From: Eledone cirrhosa
Lineage: Eukaryota
Assembly (NCBI GenBank): GCA_964016885.1
Contig: OZ024741.1
Location: forward strand, 390,972,001-391,036,000
DNA length: 64,000 bases
Direction: 5' to 3'
In this document: in pieces, positions 45,917-58,551 of the stretch
Layout of the letters: each line of letters begins with the position of its first letter
How positions within the stretch are numbered: the stretch's first letter is position 1
Made by a program: the position numbers and the translations under genes
Notes under the pieces: generated by a model
Told to the model about the DNA's origin: nothing
The model's database searches: none
What the model saw: the letters and a program-made list of their open reading frames with translations, nothing else

Positions 45917-48185
45917 GCTACAGTACTTTTTTCCATTTCATCCAGTTAAATATATCTGGATACTATTCACTTTTCCTTCTTAAAACATTGAGACAAACAT
46001 TTATTTATGTGGCATCACGTCTTCTAAAGCTCTAAAAAAGTTCTTTTCCCGTTTAACTTCTAGCAGCCGACGACTTTGGTACTTCCAATTACAATGAATT
46101 AAAATATTGATCTCCTATGAATTCTATTTAATCTCCAATATCTCATTATCTAGTGGTACCGTCTGGAAATCGATAGTAGTTGCGGTGTGGAATGTTGAAG
46201 TTCAACGATCGTAACTTGCAACATCACTATCATAATTACAATGGAGAAATAATTATCACACACCTGTAGATAGTCCATAGCTTTACGGAAGGAATGCGTA
46301 ATAGCCCATAGCTTTACAGATGTCATTTGGAATGCATTATTGAACTTCTGGATATTTTGAAGAAAGTGTCTTGATTCAGTAGTTGAACCAATCAGCAACC
46401 CCATCAAGGGTTCTGGTGGTTCAGGTAATAGTCTAAACTTAATCCTTCCATTTAAACAACACAATCCAGTTGACCCACCATTCCTTTGTTCACATAGCTT
46501 TTGAGTTTTCTGAGTCTCAGTTTCTTCATGTCAGCTTTGAGCTGTTCTATTTTTCTCCATTTGCTGTCTTAATGGTTTTCGTGCATCTGATTCCTCTTGA
46601 TGAATAGTTGCTTCCATTGTCCTATCTTCAGCAAGCCCTTTTGACCTTTGATCCTCTGATTGATCCTGTCTATTCCGTACACTTCTTATTCTTTGTTGTT
46701 GAAGCCTTGATAATCTTTGTGCATCTGATTTATCCCGCAAAGTTACTTTCATTGTCCTATCATCAGCAAACCTTTTTGAACTTTGTTCTTCTGATTCATT
46801 TTGCCTTTGGGGGGTCTTTCTTGTCGCTGCTTTTCACTTTCATTCTCCCTTAGTAGCTGCTTTGCCATAGCTTGATGAGATTTTCTTCCAAATGAAGGGG
46901 CATTTTTTGCTTGCAGCTTCAAATGAGGCTATTATTTAATTTTATATTTTTCTTTTAATGCTGGATCTAAGTCGAGTCAAATATAACTCCATTAACTTTC
47001 AGCTATATTTCGAAAACAACAACTAAAAACTAATGGAAATGAATATGCAAAAAAATATTACAGGTTTCACATGTGTTATTTTTAGTTGTGTTTCTATAAA
47101 TCGAATAAAGAAACCCAAATTTAATGAGAGGCTGACATACACATATACACACGGAGCTATATAAGAAAATGTGGCATATATATACACACCGAGGAAAGAT
47201 ATGAAGAAGATAGTAGTAAGAAACTCTCAGGAGAGCTGAACAACAGAACGTCTTCAGAGAAGAAAACCCCTCACGCAAGTGTTTCAGTTTTTAACTTCTT
47301 ACAATCTACGGGGCCCATGCAGCATCCAGGTCAATTAAACCGTATGGAGATTTTTCATTGCCTCTGCTTTGAAACTTATATCTAGAAGCTTTCTTGAGTT
47401 TGGAAAAATAACATTGGTAGTCATGGTAACAGTGATATGTCACCGTCACCACCACCACCAACTACAAACGTGACTTACTCAGGGTTTCTTCCCTTAGTGT
47501 GTGTTAAAATACAAACACAATGCTGTCAAACTCTATAGAAGTCATTTTGTTCAGGGGCTAAATATTAAGTAGATATGACATATAGGCACATACACACATG
47601 GAAGAGATATAAAGAATGTATATCAAAATGTGCTGCAGCCAATAGAGGAGAGAGCATATTTTAATATTAATGCAGGCATGTGTTGTTGCTTTATGTTGAT
47701 TGAATGCGTGTTGCTCACTTATTTTAGTCGCATCTCCTTCCATGCAGGAGAGAGAGGCGGGACGTTTAGTACTGAAGCAAGCGTGAGTTTATTGCTTTAG
47801 TGTCGGCTACTAAGTTGAACGCGTGTCGTTCACTTTCTACGCTTTCGTTATCTCTGTTTCTTTGTCTTTTGGTTCATGCATTGTTAACCTACTTGCTTAG
47901 TTCCATCTTTGGCTTTCAGCACTTTAGCTAATTTCGCGCGTGCTTTCTCTCAAATTCTCATTTCTTCATTGTCTCTATTTTCCGTCATTTTCCATCGTAG
48001 TAAAGACGATAACTCACAACGATCAGAGATTGACAAAGAGACAAACAAAAATATAAACAAATGAAAGTGCAAGGAAAACCTATTCCTGAATCTAAAGAAT
48101 TCACATGCCAAGTTTGAGCATGATTGGTCTACTGGTTTCTATGTGCATCGGAGTCAAACAGACAAACAAGCTAATATATATATAT
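45672..48185 (-). mobile_element. Internally deleted canonical Helitron retaining the RepHel N-terminus
   Basis: CCLNGRIK..PEPPEPL..SRHFLQNIQKFNNAFQMTS plus upstream R/Q/E repeats; 3' hairpin + CTAG|T like Helitron A; Helitron-like 5' region near 48090-48185 (approximate). Confidence 0.85.
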
Positions 48186-48273: not shown

Positions 48274-48348
<75 letters not shown>

Positions 48349-48984
48349 GAAAGTATACAAATTGTTGTGAGCGTGAAGCCAACAGTATTTCATAATATAT
48401 ATAAGTGACTATAACGTTAAAATGGAAAAATAGTTAACGTAAGATGTGGGAAAATAATTCAAACTCAATTTTAAAAAAAATCAAGACAGATTTATCCATA
48501 GAATTTTGTAAAATCCAGGGAAAATCAATAGAGCCTTAACTCAGAATAAAATAAAGTTTAAATACTCATCCTTCAATTTGGAAAAGCTACAAATGCTCTG
48601 TATAGTCTTAAAAAGACTATTCTGAGAAATTTTCAGTGGGGATGGTCACGGTTGGAGTTGTTCATCAGCAGAGCTCAAACACGATAACCCAAAATCCACT
48701 GTAGAATATGCCAAAAGGGGAATTTAAAAATATTGTTGTGGTCGTGTTTTCGTTGGCAATCGTCTGTTTACGACAGTACAGCGCGGCTCTACTTTATTTA
48801 ACTGAGATAAAACTTATATGAGCATGAACAGTAGATCATTACGCATCTTTTGGCTTAAAAATCTAGAAATTTGGTCCAGCGGGAAAAAGTTTATAATCAA
48901 AGTTTGCTGATAAATCTTGTGTTCAAGTGAGTGAGTAGTAAGCGTGACGCTAGGGGAGGTAATCCAGAAATGACGACGTTTGGA

Positions 48985-49598
48985 ATATGTATATTTGTGT
49001 ACGTCGCCATATATGTATGTATGTATATGTGTATATGTATATTTGTGTATGTCGCAATATATGTATGTATGTGTGTATATGTATATTTGTGTACGTCGCC
49101 ATATATGTATGTATGTGTGTATATGTATATTTGTGTATGTCGCAATATATGTATGTGTGTATATGTATATTTGTGTACGTCGCCATATATGTATGTATGT
49201 GTGTATATGTATATTTGTGTACGTCGCCATATATGTATGTATGTATGTATGTATGTGTGTGTATGTATATTTGTGTACGTCGCCATATATGTATGTATGT
49301 GTATATGTATATTTGTGTACGTCGCCATATATGTTTGTATGTATATGTGTATATGTATATTTGTGTACGTCGCCATATATGTATGTATGTATGTATGTAT
49401 GTGTATATGTATATTTGTGTACGTCGCCATATATGCAGTATGTATGTGTGTATATGTATATTTGTTTATGTCGCGATATATGTATGTATGTATGTGTGTA
49501 TGTGTGTATATGTATATTTGTGTATATCGCCATATATGTGTGTATGTATGTGTATATGTATATTTGTGTACGTCGCCATATATGTATGTATGTGTGTA
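48985..49598. repeat. Minisatellite, about 13 units of ~40-56 bp
   Basis: Unit atatgtatatttgtgtacgtcgccatat followed by variable (ATGT)n/(GT)n. Confidence 0.92.
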
Positions 49599-50690
49599 TC
49601 GGGCTCACATACATTCTCTGTGCGTGATTTGGCTCAGCTCAGCCAATCAGCGCCAGTAGAAGAGGATGTATCCCTACGCGTTCGGAGGGAGAAATAGCCC
49701 GCAAAGATTTGAGGACGCTATCACTTCCAGGCTAGACCGTGTTAAGGTAAACAACACTTGTTCTTTTGCTCCGTAAGCACAAACAATATGTAACGACAAG
49801 ACATTACCTACGAGCCTGACCAAACGCATTCAGCCAGTCGCCCGTATTTTCTCTTGTAATCTTAATTGAATTATTTCATTATTCTTGGCATGCCAGCTTA
49901 ATTCACTTCTTAACCTTTATTAATAAATAATGTAAAAACAAGCTAAAATTCGTTGTCGATATTCCTATCGTATCTTTCTACCAAACCTGGTTCCTCGTGG
50001 CAACAACACAACAACTCTCTAAATATTCTTTTCCGCTAAATTCGAATTTATACCTAAACCAAATTGGTGACAATATATCTACACCAAATTTGTGACCCTC
50101 GACGATTAAGTATGAAAACGCAGCCTATTTGAATTCGCCAGTCGTTTTAACGGAAATGTGGAGTGGCTTAACATTTGGAATATTCGAATCGGGTTTCTAG
50201 ACTCGCTTAGCGTAAGTCCATAAAATTCATAATATTCCATTTGTTGAAGCACGCGACCTACACAATATTTCTGTTATAACTTTCATGGTAACACAAGTAA
50301 CTCACGCATACAGACGAACACAAAAATACTACACAAAAGAAAGAGTTTTTTCGACGTCTAACAAAAAATTTCTCTTTTGGATTGAAAATTATTATTGCGA
50401 GCATAGTTTGATAAAAACAAAAAAAAAAAAAGAATTAAAAAAAAAAAAAATTTCTCTGGATATAGAATTTTGCTCGGCTTATTCAGTTTTTCCATGGCAC
50501 AGAAATGGAGTATTTCCATTTCGAATCAATACCTTTCACTAAAATCGGGCAATTGGACTGATCAAATTCACATTCATGCCAGTTTTTACAAATCGGAGGT
50601 GAGCAAAGTGAGACAGGTGCACAAAAAGAGGGGTGTGAGCAAAGTGACCAGGAAGATTTTGATGGCAGAAAATGTACAGAACTTCTGACT

Positions 50691-53600
50691 TTGGCTAGAT
50701 TATGCAAATTTGGTCCCCCATCAAATTGCCCAGATCCCACTGCACGTCTAAAGCTAGCTAAACGAATGCACAAGGCCATACATGAACTTTCACCTGATTT
50801 GACTGTGTCCCAAATTCGGAAAAAAATGGAAATCTTTGAGCAGTGTAAAAGATTCCATAGGGACAACATCTATTGCATAGGACAGTCTGACTGCACAAAT
50901 GGACTTGAACTGATTCGAAGTATGGCTCCTCACTCTCCTCGCATCAGTACAATTCTGAGATGTGTGTACAAAGTGAGATCAGTCTGTGTCTGGCTAGACT
51001 CCTATGACATTTCAATCTTGGAAGGAAATTGGTCAATGTTTGATGATCTAGTAAATCCCCAAAACATGTCCAACAATCTGCTAAGCCGTTTGAATGAGAT
51101 AGTGGAAAATGAAAATGAGAGCTTGCATTCAGAATCCTCAACCATGGCCAATTTTGCATCCATTATCAAACATTTTAATAAAGAGATTCAAAAAATGAAA
51201 ATCAACTCCTGTGACATTTGCAAACAACGAGAATTAGATGCTAAACTCAAAGTCTGGGAGGATTGGAGCCCTTTGACAAATCCCTATCTCCTGGAAACCA
51301 TTCAACAAAACTACTCTCTACCATGTACGATTTGCTCTACATGTAGAAATAGTCTTGTCAAAAAGTCGATACCATCATTGGCTTCAATCAATGGCCTAGA
51401 AGTGGTCAAAATTCCAAATGCGTTGTCAAAGTTGAACATGTATGAGCAGATTTTGATCCAAATGGCCAATTGCTTCATCAATGTCATTAAATTGTCACCC
51501 TATCGTTTCAAAGGTGCACCATCACATCTAGTAGCTGCTATTAAAGGAATAGCAACTCACATGCCACTACCAGTAGAAAACACAATCAATCATGTAATGA
51601 AAAAACTTCCATCGAATCAAAATGATGCATTTGAAATAATTGTTGATAGTCTTCCAACTAAAAAGGGCACAATTTGGCGATCGCTAGTGAATATGCAAAA
51701 TGTCTTTGATGCCTTGGAGTGGCTGAAAAACAACAATGACATTTACAATGACATTTTGATAGACAGAACCACAAATTTAGAGGACATTGTTACATGCACT
51801 GGTGAAAATGTTTCCATCAATTTTCCACACATTCTCACACAAACTGGTGCTGAAACAGTCTATGAACACCATACTGTACAGCAAATCAAGCCTGCACTCC
51901 CAAATCAAAAGGACCTTGAACTGTTTCGCATGAAACGAGTTGAAGGTACTCTTCTTCCGGACAATGATCCAAACCTGGATCTAATGTGCTTCCCCCACTT
52001 ATTCCCTAAAGGAAAATTTGGAATGATGCACATGAACAGACCCCATGGTAGAATAAAGCCCTACATGTTCATCAGAAACAGACTCAGACATGAGGACCCC
52101 GGTTTCGTAGAGACATTCAGTACATTCTCTACAACTTGGACAAGGCTGACAAAAGAACACTAGATTCTGGCATTTATGCCGTAATGAAATCACTCAAAAG
52201 TCCAAAATTGACACTTGCTCAATTTTATAAAAGATTGGAAGACAATGATGAACAATTGGAAAGTGGTTTGTCAATGATGATGGCGAATGTTCGTGGAACA
52301 AAGCCATTTTGGGAACGCAAGTGCTCCGACTTGAATGCCATAGATGAGAAATTCGGTCCTGCCCATTTGTTTATCACTCTTTCATGTGCTGAATACTTTT
52401 GGCCAGGCTTGAGGGAATTTTTGGAAAAACTCAATAAAGACATTGCAAATGTTGAAACAAGGCCGATAGGGAATCTCTGTGCAAATGATGTTGTGGCTGT
52501 CAGTGAGTACTTTCACCATCGTTTTAGTGCTGTTTTTCATGATGTAATTTTAAATAAAAAAGGCCCATTTGGGAAAATTATTCATTACTTTTGGCGACTC
52601 GTGTATCAACAACGTGGTGCCCCTCACATTCACCTTAAAGCCTGGGTTCGGGACAGTGTAATTTTTAACAAAGATCCTAAAGAAAAAATCAAGCAATTTA
52701 TTGAACGCTGCATTACTTGCCGGCTACCATCCCCTGTGGCCAGCCCAAACTTGGCAAATCTCGTTAGACGGTTCCTAGTCCATACTTGTGGCAAAGCATG
52801 CTGGAGAATAGTGAGGAGAGGGAAACATTTTCGTAAAAAATGCCGTTTTGGTTTTGCACGTGCAGTGGGGCCATTTCGGTTTTTCTCAGTTTCTGAAAGT
52901 ATCAAATCACGAAAAAATGGTAATGGAACAAAAAAACTGTACCAAACCAATTGGAAAGAAAAGAATCAGAAAAGTACATAAATGACTACAATCCCTGTTT
53001 ACTTCTAGCCTGGCAAGCAAATATAGATGTGCAATACATTGGTGAGAATAGTATGATTTTGAATAGATATGTCACCTGCTATCAGACTAAGGCTGAAAAA
53101 AATGAGGCTGAGGGAGTGTGGGCGAATCTGGATCATTCCAAAACAAAATATGGGAAATACAAAAGTGCTGGACTGCAATTGCTTGGGAAAAAGGACACAG
53201 GAGGATATGAAGCTGCTGACAAACTTTTGGGGCATCATTTTTACGGGTCATCAGATCATGTTATTTGGGTAGGTGCAGACATTCCCAGTAGGCGCGGCCG
53301 CAGATTGAAATCTCAAAATGATCTCGATGAACTGAGTGAACACTCAATGGACTTGTTCTACGAGAACATGGTGGAAACTTTTTACAAAAACCGGCCAAAA
53401 TTCCTGGAAGATTCCTCCTTATATGAAGTTGCCAGCAAATATGAGAGGACACAAAAAAAACCTGTTGACAAAGATGTGGCTACAAAAATGAAATTGCTCA
53501 ATGACAAGGGGTATTTTCATAGTGTAAAAGAGCGGGTAGTTAAAGCACCGAATATACAGCTCAAAAATGACACAAAAGAACGTTATTACCACAATATTCT

Positions 53601-55852
53601 AATGCTGTTCAAACCCTGGCGCGATGAGGACAAAGATTTATTGGGGGGCTGCAAAACATTTGAAGAGTCCTTTCATCTGTGTGCAAACAATTTGCCTGAT
53701 ATGGTGAATTTTCAAAATGTGAGGAAAAAAATCACTGATGCAGTTGAGATGGGGAAGAGGTTGGAGAAGGAGGGTGAAAAGGAGGGAGAGGTCGGAGAAG
53801 GACGGAGAGAAGAGGGGGAGAAGGAGGCAAGAGGTGAGGCTGGTATTGATGTTCCCCAAATTCAAGATGTAGATGAAACTGCTCTACAGACAAAAGAAAC
53901 ACAGCTTAATACAGATCAAGTATCCATATACAATCTAATTGTATCAGCAATTGAAAAACAGGAATTGCATTGGAATTCGGAAAAGCCACTACCAAGGTGC
54001 AGATGTGATGATTGCCCACAATTTCTCAAATTTGTCTCTGGTGTAGGAGGTACAGGGAAAAGTTTTCTCATTGATATAATTTCTGACAAAGTTACTCAAA
54101 TTTGTTGCAAGAGAAATGGGGCCCCAGTAATCATTTGTGCACCAACTGGTATGGCTGCTTTCCAAATCAAGGGGACTACTTTGCACAGGCTCTTCAAACG
54201 CCCAGTCCAACATGGAAAGTCACCATCATATAGGGAATTAGAAAGTGATGAACTCAAAATTTTGCGATCCACTCTAGAGGGTGTCCGTCTGATAATTATC
54301 GATGAAATAAGTATGGTCAGTCATCTGATGTTGGCATTTATCCATAGGCGTCTAGATGAGATTTTTGGGGACCAGAGTCAAATGACCAGCCCTTTTGGAA
54401 AAATAAATATTCTGGTTTTTGGCGATCTACTTCAACTTCCACCAGTAAATGAAAAAACACTCTTTTCCAGTATTTCTGCATATGATGCTAAAAGGACTGG
54501 TCTGGGAATAAGTGGTCAGTCACTGTGGAAATTTTTCGACTATGATGAGCTCACTATAAACATGCGGCAAAAAAATGACAGTGAAAACTATTCTGAAATG
54601 TTGGGTCGAATAAGAATAGGATCACCTACAGACATGGACATCAAGACTTTGAGTGAACATTGCCTATTCCCAGATCGCAGGGCAACAATGAGAGAGGCAA
54701 CTGAGAAACTAATGCAACTTTGCACATTACCTAGTCAAAAATTTGTCTGTATTTTGCCTGTCAATGAATCTGTAGATGAATTCAACAAGGAAATGCTTAA
54801 GCATGCCAACATCAGTACAGTTGTAGTTATTGCTGAGGACTCAGGAATGCGCCAGAAAGGTCGTAAAAAAAAGTCAAAGTCAAACAAATTTTCCAAACCA
54901 AAAAAGGCATCAGACACTGCTGGACTTGAGACTGAATTGCAAGTTGGAGTTGGGGCCAGAGTAATGCTGAGACGAAACATTAATTTGGTGAAGGGGCTAT
55001 GTAATGGTGTCATGGGAACAGTGCAAAGCATGGTCAATGGAAAAGATGGGAAAATGGGACAAATCATTGTGGAATTTGATCACATGATAGGCAATGACAT
55101 TTCAATAGAAAAGGTGACTGCAGACTATGAAATCTCTCCTGGTGTGTATGTGACACGAAAACAGTTCCCCCTAAGCCTTGCCTATGCCATCACCATCCAT
55201 AAATCACGGGGAATAAGTGTTGATGGGGTCATTGCTGATCTTGGTTCTCTGTTGTTCGCAGATGGAATGGCCTATGTTGCACTTTCACGAGCTAGGAAAC
55301 TCTGCAATGTCTATTTGATAGATTTTGACCCACGAACCCTGATCATGTGTGACAAATCTGCTTGGGAAGAGTACAACAAATTGCGTTCTACAACAAAATT
55401 GCCTCCACTTGGACCATGTAGAAATAAACCACCATGCATGGCTTCTGAATCTTGCATGCCAAAAAAACAATCATGGCGAATGTTGAATGTGGACAACCCT
55501 TCTGAATATGCTCCTCCTACCAAAAAACCTAAATTAGCTACAATTTCCATGCTCACTCCCATGATTAGACTACAAAATAAGGAAAATGCCTGTTTTGCCA
55601 ATTCCACACTTCAAGCTATTGCCCAATTGCCCAAACTTTGGGAAACTTTGTTGTCTACCAAATTACTCAGTCCAGTTGTTCAGGAAATAGCAAATATTGT
55701 CAATGATTCAAAAATTGAACTTTCCCAATCTTCACAACATTGAAAATTGGTCAAAATTTGACAAATCTGACTTCAAACCAGATATGATTCATTTGAACAA
55801 TGTTGGAAATCTTAAATTGACACAAATTTTTGCCAATGTTTTTGCCACCTGA
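50691..55852 (+). pseudogene. Helentron/Helitron2-type RepHel polyprotein (DUF6570-like, HUH Rep, PIF1 helicase) with USP-like and SGNH-like tail; frameshifts near 52110, 52950, 55700
   Basis: CFPHLFPKG, VRGTKPFW, FITLSCAE, YQQRGAPHIH, YVTCYQTK; GVGGTGKS, APTG, IIDEISMV, GDLLQLPPV, QFPLSLAYAITIHKS, YVALSR. Confidence 0.92.
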
Positions 55853-56012
55853 GGTAATTACAAGGGGAGGTAATTACGAGTCTCTCTCTATTATCTAATA
55901 TATTTCAAATTGTATTTTTAACTAAATTCATTTATCATAGTCTAATATTTTAAAAATAGGTTAGTGCTCCACGATGATGACCCATGTCCCCGCCATGTGG
56001 AGGGGATGCTTA

Positions 56013-56078
56013 GGAGCCATCCAGATATCATGTGACCATTTTTGGTTCGCGGTGTCCACATGATATCTGGATGGCCCT
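56013..56078. mobile_element. 66-bp PIF/Harbinger-like miniature element
   Basis: 19-bp perfect inverted repeat (56016-56034 / 56057-56075); TTA on both flanks. Confidence 0.6.
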
Positions 56079-56563
56079 TTATACTAATTAGTCATTTATC
56101 TGCATAAAAATTATACCAGATCATTCTGATTATTGGCTTGAAATCTTTTACAAAATTAGTATGAGCAACTAAGAGGTCATCAATAGAAATAGAATTACTT
56201 TTTGAAGTTTTCATGCACAGCATTTTTTGGGATTTTAAATAAAAGTTAATATCATAATTCTTATTTTGTATACCCACATTGCAGATACAGAGAAACATGA
56301 CAATCCTATATAAAGGTCGTAGACAGCAGTATCAGTTTTTATCCGTAACACCACTGAAATGCACAAGTTTCACCAATTCCCTATTATGCACTAATCATCT
56401 CAAATGCATTCATGATTTACTAGCTTTGTCATTAAGCCAGTTGCCTCAACTAGATTGCAATTATACCCAAAAGAACTTTAAAATGTCAATCACTTGTCAG
56501 TAATTCACTATGATCATTTAATTATTAGATAGTTGTTGCTTGCATTGCCTTAAAAAATAGTAG

Positions 56564-57584
56564 ACCAGATAAAAAAATGCGTACAGCAAAAAAAAGTAAT
56601 ATTGTTGGAATATAAACCTTTAAAAATACAGGACAAGAAACTAAAATAAAACTTTAAAAGAATAGGACAAGAAACTAAGATAAAACTTTAAAGAATTGGA
56701 CAAGAAATAAAAAATTTTACAATAATATTAGTGGCAAAATTTTTTTATTCGTTTCCTGTGCCATGCCCCAGTATCTTCTTGATTAGTGAATAATAATTGT
56801 CATGCTCTCATTGTGCGTTGCCTCTGAGCTTGGTTCTGGTTGGGGTTGGTTGGCTGAGCAGTTCTGCTCCGTCAGAATGACCATTGCAAGAAGAATTGGC
56901 CGATGCAGCTGCAGGTCTCCTCCAAGAATGCACTTCTGGTCCCGCAACACCAGACGAAGATGGAGAAGACGACCGGGACAAGATGTCGACTCTGACCACC
57001 GACTACGGCACCTCCCTCAACCACCGGTCCTCCCTCTGTCCCGTCATCCCTCCAGTCCTCCTGCTCCCCCTTCCTGTACCAGAAAGCTGTGGCACGCATT
57101 CATGTGGACTGCCGGACTTGAACTCAAGGACAAGATGCAAGGAGAAGATGGACGGGTTGGTCAAGATCAAGGATGAGCGGGACGACAAGACCGTCCGCTG
57201 CTGCTCAAGATCTGTGCTCATGGGCCCATGGGTCCATTTACATTATGCATGACACATGAGGCGTGTCGCCGAATGATGAAATAGGGGTATGGTTATGGCC
57301 CAATTGGTGTTCAAACCAGGATCAAATGATCCCCCCGGTCTGACGACGACCTCTGAATATGGAACCCAGAGCCTATGAATGTGGAACTCGAGTTTTTACC
57401 AATAAATATTTTGCCACTAATATTATTGTAAATTTTTTTATTTCTTGTCCAATTCTTTAAAGTTTTATCTTAGTTTCTTGTCCTATTCTTTTAAAGTTTT
57501 ATTTTAGTTTCTTGTCCTGTATTTTTAAAGGTTTATATTCCAACAATATTACTTTTTTTTGCTGTACGCATTTTTCTATCTGGT
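56564..57584. mobile_element. Foldback element with ~185-bp TIRs and a GC-rich core
   Basis: 56564-56750 mirrors ~57400-57584; three ggacaagaaa subrepeats per arm. Confidence 0.85.
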
Positions 57585-58477
57585 ATATAAATGAAAGTAT
57601 AGAAATTGTTGTGAGCGTGAAGCCAACAGTATTTCATAATATATATAAGTGACTATAACGTTAAAATGGAAAAATAGTTAACGTAAGATGTGGGAAAATA
57701 ATTCAAACTCAATTAAAAAAAAAATCAAGACAGATTTATCCATAGAATTTTGTGAAATCCAGGGAAAATCAATAGAGCCTTAACTCAGAATAAAATAAAG
57801 TTTAAATATCATCCTTCAATTTGGAAAAACTACAAATGCTCTGTATAGTCTTAAAAAGACTATTCCGAGAAATTTTCAGTGGGGATGGTCACGGTTGGAG
57901 TTGTTCATCAGCAGAGCTCAAACATGATAACCCAAAATCCACTGTAGAATATGCCAAAAAGGGAATTTAAAGATAGGCTAGTTCGTACGTAATTATGAAA
58001 AATAAACGCGCATGAAGAGACATGGCTGGTGACGTCAGAATGAGACGAATGTCTGTTTACATGAAACAGCAGTCAAAAAATATTCCGAAAAAAACTCTAC
58101 AAGTGTAAGGAGTTCATAGCAATATTATCGCGTTTTTTCTTTTTAAAAAGACCCGGATTAGTCACAAATTATTTTAAGCACTCTAGGAAAATTCCGAGTA
58201 TAAATATAAATGAAAGTATAGAAATTGTTGTGAGAGTGAAGCCAACAGTATTTTATAATATATAAGTGACTATAACGTCAAAATGGAAAAATAGTTAACG
58301 TAAGATGTGGGAAAATAATTCAAACTCAATAAAAAAAAAATCAAGACAGATTTATCCATAGAATTTTGTGAAATCCAGGGAAAAATCAATAGAGCCTTAA
58401 CTCAGAATAAAATAAAGTTTAAATATCATCCTTCAATTTTGAAAAACTACAAATGCTCTGTATAGTCTTAAAAAGAC

Positions 58478-58551
<74 letters not shown>

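Follow-up and report, generated by a model that had tools for sequence, protein, structure and literature searches.

A 64,000-nucleotide stretch of Eledone cirrhosa DNA (assembly GCA_964016885.1, contig OZ024741.1, positions 390,972,001 to 391,036,000 of the forward strand; hereafter the window, whose numbering is used throughout) contains at 48730-57583 a dead, internally deleted copy of a rolling-circle transposon of the HLE2 type (Helitron2-like). The intact parent of this copy probably encoded a Rep-helicase-USP transposase, in which a ubiquitin-specific protease (USP, peptidase family C19) forms the C-terminal domain, together with a separate and likely spliced cargo gene for a predicted NADAR-SGNH product. 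An earlier, sequence-only reading of the window had proposed a Rep-helicase-USP-SGNH parent; the rolling-circle transposase with an in-frame USP has stood, whereas the SGNH part is assigned to a distinct NADAR-SGNH gene with introns. The family of the window copy is designated family A, and it is compared below with its sister family A' (85-87% identical) and with family B (46% identical). Statements on published elements refer to the accessible parts of the papers cited.

The transposase and its C-terminal USP domain

In the window, Pfam recognises DUF6570, Helitron_like_N and PIF1 spread over three consecutive open reading frames (ORFs) that are offset by frameshifts. After PIF1, the peptide MIRLQNKENACFANSTLQAI is encoded at 55561-55620 in the same frame as the 939-codon helicase ORF (52924-55743), as had been reported before, and the Cys-box pattern that it fits is matched once in the window and never in 100 crude shuffles. 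The window retains the first 47 codons of the USP (55561-55702, plus strand, in the PIF1 frame), a fragment that scores 20.4 bits against Pfam UCH (E 4e-4), below the cut-off of 23.9 bits. The remainder is encoded by DNA that the window lacks, and longer copies with the missing parts, for which the sequence-only reading had proposed a search, were found in the same genome. In one of them (L021) UCH is matched with an E-value of 1.1e-13 and 51.8 bits over profile positions 2-240 of 254, which establishes the Cys-box as that of a USP, and in another (L031) the C-terminus of the helicase and the whole USP share one 508-codon frame. A stop follows the USP in the long copies that were read. It is a genuine USP, joined in frame to PIF1 as the terminal domain of the transposase.

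The Cys-box, the His-box, a third acidic or amide residue and a zinc ribbon are all present in the alignment of this domain, and the catalytic Cys and His and the oxyanion Asn are kept in at least 90% of the 22 aligned sequences. An AlphaFold model (pLDDT 90.9) matches the structures of USP14, USP21 and USP2 in Foldseek (E 2e-15, TM 0.7-0.77), with a predicted palm-thumb-fingers fold. The ratio of non-synonymous to synonymous substitution (dN/dS) in the USP is 0.43-0.49 between families A and A'; between families A and B the synonymous sites are saturated, the proportions of differences being 0.88 at synonymous sites (pS) and 0.37 at non-synonymous sites (pN). The USP of the intact parent was likely an active deubiquitinase. 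A word-indexed search of longer proteins with the USP alone, which is a weak test, gave no match, and a sequence search of the PDB returned weak USP matches only, ranked under an artefactual match to a repeat protein. A metagenome scan with the USP alignment gave two loci, of which L109 was read and set aside as a cellular USP of the ordinary kind.

The loss of the interval between the USP and SGNH parts, which had been supposed from the window alone, proved to be a deletion of 1.39-1.40 kb at 55702. When the genome was searched with 55200-55900, 40 of the 329 candidates were scored, of which 7 cover the whole segment, 12 end at 55702 and 21 begin there; in four long copies (L021, L024, L027 and L032) the halves flanking this position are separated by 1.39-1.40 kb. 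The deletion junction shows a one-base overlap. Since all seven full-length matches, with 96.7-98.3% identity to the window copy, have the same junction, the deleted form was itself mobilised. Having lost the body of the USP and most of the cargo gene, this form was copied in trans to at least six other places.

When the genome was searched with the USP, 117 of 128 candidates matched, families A' and B among them. All seven full-frame copies of family B that were fetched carry one ORF of 2230-2245 amino acids, in which DUF6570, Rep, PIF1 and UCH are followed by a stop, and the family B USP scores 39.6 bits, above the Pfam cut-off. The element is intact and 12.9 kb long at these loci (L089+L090 at G000:C2:253.89-253.91 Mb and six others), and two of the copies are 99.8% identical across 12.9 kb. 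Family B is put forward as a possible autonomous element with recent activity, and its seven intact, near-identical copies provide a ready enzyme and transposition substrate.

Among public proteins, 190 relatives were found, and the 120 that were listed form the basis of the following counts. PF00443 (UCH) is annotated in 27 of them, including proteins from Rhodnius, Bemisia, Nasonia, Linepithema and Diaphorina, and a local USP profile matches 38, in 36 of which the domain follows the helicase. Of these 36 C-terminal USPs, 32 end no more than 33 residues from the end of the protein, and both the Cys and His boxes are kept in 21 according to a simple pattern. No GDSL or NADAR Pfam domain occurs in the 120 proteins. 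In other HLE2s an OTU domain occupies the C-terminal place of the USP, and Pfam labels the two together in none of the 120. A strict mutual exclusion was nevertheless rejected, because the local profile finds a degenerate USP before the OTU domain in 3 of 43 OTU proteins. The HLE2 transposases P0079, P0080, P0082 and P0087 end in a USP-like domain that lacks the catalytic Cys and, after it, an OTU-like domain. The nearest named protein, from Octopus bimaculoides, is 44% identical.

The predicted NADAR-SGNH gene downstream

The second peptide of the sequence-only reading, at 55703-55852 (plus strand), lies as described in an overlapping frame, +1 with respect to the helicase ORF. It comprises the last 49 codons and the stop of the SGNH part, with block V, and does not keep the frame of the transposase. 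Within the window this tail has no Pfam match, and the motif by itself is weak, because the DxxH pattern is matched twice (shuffle mean 0.06) and the second match is unrelated; it is the longer copies that decide. The stop of the USP frame in L021 lies about 490 bp upstream of a separate 119-amino-acid frame that ends in the block V peptide, and the same spacing is found in the rest of the window sub-lineage (L024, L027 and L032). This frame matches Lipase_GDSL_3 (E 6e-4 to 1e-3) and GDSL clusters of the ESM Atlas (0.90-0.92).

The least rearranged copies (L031, L033 and L028) have about 2 kb, with further exons, between the USP and the SGNH exon. Three consecutive exons match Pfam NADAR colinearly (profile positions 4-67, 81-116 and 118-162 of 163), and the third of them, the junction exon, runs directly into SGNH block I. 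With the predicted splicing, blocks I (GDS), II (G), III (GxND) and V (DxxH) stand in order in these three copies, and the block V peptide had been correctly assigned. Five exons and four introns with GT-AG borders, three introns of 54-57 nt and one of 213-217 nt, are present in all four copies tested, and in one of the four, L033, the predicted splicing yields a stop-free NADAR-SGNH frame of 339 amino acids. The SGNH piece is, on this arrangement of exons, likely the last exon of a separate, spliced downstream gene with a predicted NADAR-SGNH product. The accessible part of PMC11543638 names E, K and a last-strand E as the catalytic residues of NADAR; E, K (+7) and the last-strand E are present in L031 and L033, as located by motif spacing and not by structural alignment, and in L028 the last-strand E is replaced by G. 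The product is accordingly predicted as an ADP-ribose hydrolase joined to an esterase.

Across the genome, the junction exon is found in seven places, with one further weak match: three long RepHel-USP copies, three derivatives that have the 5' end of the element, and L116 (mapped to 3.2 kb). A search of the genome for the NADAR family gave matches in this element only (two of the four candidates), although divergent or intron-split genes can escape such a search. The SGNH exons are spread widely by a 3.6-kb non-autonomous derivative, which accounts for all 150 scored candidates of the 301 seen. The sole GDSL match elsewhere in the genome is unrelated to the cargo gene (22% identity, E 0.85). 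Outside the genome, a word-indexed protein search with the junction exon, again a weak test, gave no match, the best ESM Atlas match (0.77) is uninformative, a PDB sequence search with one NADAR exon found no NADAR match, and a scan of viral contigs with the junction exon gave three matches of 16-18 residues.

Two further observations touch on this gene. Between two and four tandem Cys-rich repeats lie 3' of the USP stop, at L031:4650-4730 and L035:5700-6320; they have no Pfam match, look PHD-like, corresponding to the first half of that finger, and could be exons from the upstream part of the cargo gene. At L119 (G000:C18:42.43 Mb), a single-exon frame of 466 amino acids combines Cys-rich and coiled-coil parts with an SGNH block I in which D is replaced by C, and we take it to resemble the ORF1 esterase of a long interspersed nuclear element (LINE).

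Competing explanations and proposed mechanism

Several observations weigh against a parent with a functional USP and cargo gene. The dN/dS of the USP between families A and A' is far above that of Rep and PIF1 (0.14-0.15). The profile scores of the cargo exons are low: the SGNH exon alone reaches 19.5-20.5 bits against a Pfam GDSL cut-off of 27, the three NADAR exons 18.2, 15.7 and 12.9 bits, and the genome-wide NADAR match, in which one intron is read through, 30.7 bits, the NADAR cut-off being 35.1. No copy of the cargo gene is perfect, as L031, L028 and L070 are frameshifted (three of four) and block V of L033 has N for D. Splicing is predicted; in three read runs the introns are kept and no splice joints appear, and these runs behave as DNA and are uninformative on expression. 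Neither a start codon nor a promoter was found for the cargo gene. Finally, the nearest two families, A' and B, the latter intact and recently copied, are without NADAR and SGNH.

In one rival explanation the anatomy is the same, but the NADAR-SGNH segment is an inert passenger, either a host gene that was captured or part of some other mobile element, carried along in one family with no role in transposition. This explanation is judged unlikely, yet it carries real weight. The cargo is absent from families A', B and C (none by tblastn with the cargo exons), the junction exon occupies just seven places in 3 Gb, all four full cargo copies are damaged, most derivatives retain SGNH fragments only, and Helitrons readily capture genes (PMC4021074, accessible part). 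On the other hand, no donor was found within the reach of the NADAR and GDSL searches described above, which can miss divergent or intron-split genes; the catalytic motifs of NADAR and SGNH are kept together with all splice borders; and family A' has an upstream exon-like stretch and the start of an intron, which fits loss in A' better than recent gain in A. The proposal of one Rep-helicase-USP-SGNH protein, produced either as a single ORF or through splicing that would join the USP to the exons downstream, agrees with the common strand and order of the parts and with the spacing of about 490 bp in the window sub-lineage. That spacing, however, results from rearrangement, since NADAR exons fill the 2-kb interval of L031, L033 and L028. 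The stop after the USP in the copies read and in all seven family B ORFs, the short C-terminal extensions of 32 of the 36 relatives and the lack of GDSL and NADAR Pfam domains among the 120 listed point the same way, so that the single protein is very unlikely and largely refuted at the DNA level. A chance reading of non-coding subterminal DNA as an SGNH-like peptide might be entertained for the window fragment, which has no Pfam match and belongs to a non-autonomous repeat of high copy number (all 150 scored candidates), but it is extremely improbable given the Lipase_GDSL_3 (E 6e-4) and ESM Atlas (0.90-0.92) matches of the 119-amino-acid frame, and it is refuted by SGNH blocks I-III on spliceable exons upstream.

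The favoured reading, a Rep-helicase-USP transposase with a separate NADAR-SGNH gene, allows a mechanism to be proposed. In Helitrons, Rep nicks the DNA, the helicase unwinds it, copying runs from the 5' TC to the 3' CTRR end, and deleted copies are mobilised in trans. Here, the transposase would nick at the 5' TC end, unwind, and copy on to the CTRR end. By analogy with the VTD enzymes of Helitrons (PMC9741609, accessible part), the USP might deubiquitinate the transposase or its partners, thereby delaying their degradation. NADAR might act on the intermediate, single-stranded or circular, and clear ADP-ribose from its bases or ends; this step is the weakest and is rather doubtful, because the targets of NADAR outside toxin systems are unknown according to the accessible parts of PMC11125620 and PMC11543638, and because the sister families move without it. 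A membrane ester or an acetyl ester is a possible substrate of the SGNH part. The cargo would be an optional helper and not a core part, being dispensable because families A' and B lack NADAR and SGNH.

A bolder proposition, which must be considered quite unlikely, is that of an animal HLE2 lineage with proto-Helentron-like ends and two counter-defence enzymes, the USP acting on the ubiquitin of the transposase and the spliced NADAR-SGNH product on the ADP-ribose of single-stranded DNA. If it were true, it would suggest that ADP-ribosylation of DNA serves animals as an anti-transposon defence, and there would be a physiological setting for animal NADARs, whose roles are stated as unknown in the accessible part of PMC11125620. 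A NADAR carried by a transposon with a single-stranded DNA intermediate points to a target that can be tested.

Ends, class membership and the window copy

Across families A, A' and B, all 49 distinct 5' flanks read A/TC (the slash marks the border of the element) and 37 of the 39 distinct 3' flanks read CTRR/T. With a family B copy in satellite DNA, the repeat unit is restored and nothing is duplicated, the TA context leaving a small doubt as to phase. A hairpin of -10 kcal/mol in A' and -21 kcal/mol in B follows the 5' TC, and no real hairpin was found at the 3' end (about -1 kcal/mol). In the family A copies assessed, a 12-bp repeat stands after the 5' hairpin and forms subterminal inverted repeats with a partner placed 30-40 bp short of the 3' end. 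In addition, the last 180-220 bp of the element are repeated in inverted orientation 0.5-0.7 kb upstream in all three families. In the window, the inner arm of this repeat (184 bp) occupies 56561-56744 and the outer arm 57404-57583, the arms being 97.8% identical; the outer arm contains the 12-bp subterminal repeat (57541-57552) and ends in CTGG (57580-57583), which is followed by T. The long inverted repeat (56561-57587) encloses a GC-rich spacer that differs between A and A', is flipped in L028, and is deleted in several derivatives (among L044, L047, L049 and L056), leaving a palindrome. A flip-flop mechanism for the spacer was rejected as too rare: among 51 loci, some of them overlapping, 1 is flipped, 41 have the same orientation, and 9 are without the spacer or out of range.

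According to its protein, the element resembles HLE2. The transposase contains DUF6570 (E 7.5e-18), the HLE2 marker in PMC11417382, and FWR just before Rep motif 2, in accordance with the F/Y-x-R rule for HLE2 given in PMC4067079 (accessible parts of both). In Rep motif 2 of families A and B, the residue between G and P is A, neither the S of HLE2 nor the L of HLE1. A helicase tree of 115 sequences, built without labelled references or HLE1, places families A and B among proteins that bear DUF6570 and lack an endonuclease; the AP endonuclease that Helentrons have after the helicase is absent (no Exo_endo_phos match), and the USP sits in that place. Departing from the canonical HLE2 layout, the target is A/T instead of T/T, and the strong hairpin is 5' and not after the right repeat. 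The 5' TC, the 3' CTRR and the A/T target are those of HLE1, of which both the hairpin of 16-20 nt near the 3' end and the type of transposase are missing. The very ends are thus HLE1-like, the protein is HLE2-like, and the layout is closest to proto-Helentron or HLE2-reverse elements, under which the element is not filed here. As TC...CTRR ends are not a mark of HLE1 alone, annotation based on ends is affected.

The comparison with known elements separates what was already described from what is new. The presence of a UCH domain in HLE2 Helitrons is known, and the suggestion of a little-described lineage with its own deubiquitinase has to be given up as regards the USP: in the HELIANO survey of 2024 (PMC11417382, accessible part), UCH is one of 20 stable HLE domains, is nearly confined to HLE2 and shows enrichment in subgroups c and d. 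Members of these subgroups share with the present element the DUF6570-Rep-PIF1 order without an AP endonuclease, UCH (PF00443) and 12-bp subterminal inverted repeats, but their target is T/T. In the survey, UCH is one of 17 domains counted as lying in ORFs of their own; the UCH described here is instead the C-terminal part of the transposase frame, a fusion that corrects or extends that placement, although the figures of the survey may already show the position of UCH. Neither NADAR nor GDSL/SGNH has an entry in its Table S11 as accessible; its ORF method would miss spliced genes, as ORF-based surveys of Helitron cargo do in general. The proto-Helentron of Phytophthora (PMC4067079) and the HLE2-reverse elements FoHeli3-5 of Fusarium (PMC5148889) likewise have a 5' stem-loop upstream of the left repeat and no endonuclease. 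They differ, as far as these sources were accessible, in starting with TT and TGCCT, respectively, instead of TC, in having SET and TIR domains instead of USP and NADAR-SGNH, in hosts that are not animals, and in lacking the additional 3' inverted repeat of about 200 bp.

With regard to the cargo domains, the texim SGNH genes of fish Helitrons (PMC4021074) are separate, contain introns and are dispensable in sister elements, as is the case here; they lie upstream of the Helitron coding region, the accessible text mentions no NADAR, and the likeness does not imply kinship of the SGNH domains. VTD and OTU deubiquitinases are also built into Helitron transposases, and the VTDs were shown to be active, with a proposed role against proteasomal degradation (PMC9741609, accessible part). 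The USP (C19), in contrast, is of an unrelated class of deubiquitinases, and its activity is predicted. NADARs of the YbiA family with the last-strand glutamate occur in other eukaryotic mobile elements, inside the Gypsy Pol of Ectocarpus and the Tx1 LINE ORF1 of oyster (PMC12477816, accessible part), that is, within proteins of retrotransposons and not in a separate, predicted spliced and SGNH-fused gene of a rolling-circle DNA element. A literature search that covered few of the subscription papers found none placing NADAR in a Helitron, and the accessible parts of PMC13085455, PMC13282606, PMC12273014 and 10.64898/2026.07.01.735732 contain nothing on these domains. The predicted spliced NADAR-SGNH cargo gene and the proto-Helentron-like ends in an animal appear to be new.

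The remaining features of the window copy, with its 5' end and all coding parts on the plus strand, are as follows. Its truncated 5' end (48730-48976) is missing about 28 nt that other copies have, among them the terminal TC and the hairpin, and is followed in the 5' non-coding region by a microsatellite-like tandem repeat (48977-49600), also present in L021. The likely start of the transposase ORF (50494-50594) is interrupted at 50594/50595 by a deletion of about 1.3 kb. Downstream are DUF6570 (51360-51770), the Rep (HUH) domain (Helitron_like_N, 52214-53091, E 1e-24) with motif 2 at 52595-52633 and the two-tyrosine motif at 53068-53091, and the PIF1 helicase with motifs I to VI (54031-55290, E 8.7e-25). 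The copy is dead because of this deletion, of two frameshifts revealed by comparison with L024 (near 52100-52160 and 52930-52980), and of substitutions, as compared with other copies, in Rep motif 2 (E to V) and helicase motif V (Q to R). In the rearranged window sub-lineage the SGNH tail comes first, and the displaced upstream part of the cargo gene follows (55889-56344), with a stub of the first NADAR exon, its first 20 codons, at 56285-56344. Within the displaced segment lies a near-perfect palindrome of about 70 bp (55999-56077), which family A' does not have.

The element is flanked by a direct repeat of about 390 bp (97.5% identity; 48340-48732 and 57584-57975), of which a third, partial copy is found at 58199-58481, and its 5' end is cut where the first repeat copy ends. 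On the minus strand at 46150-46833, 2 kb from the HLE2 copy, fragments without a Pfam match look like N-terminal sequence from the transposase of a canonical HLE1 Helitron. Also on the minus strand, a remnant of the C-terminus of a non-LTR (long terminal repeat) retrotransposon at 59097-60038 matches zf-RVT (E 2.7e-6) and contains an apparent restriction-like endonuclease motif.

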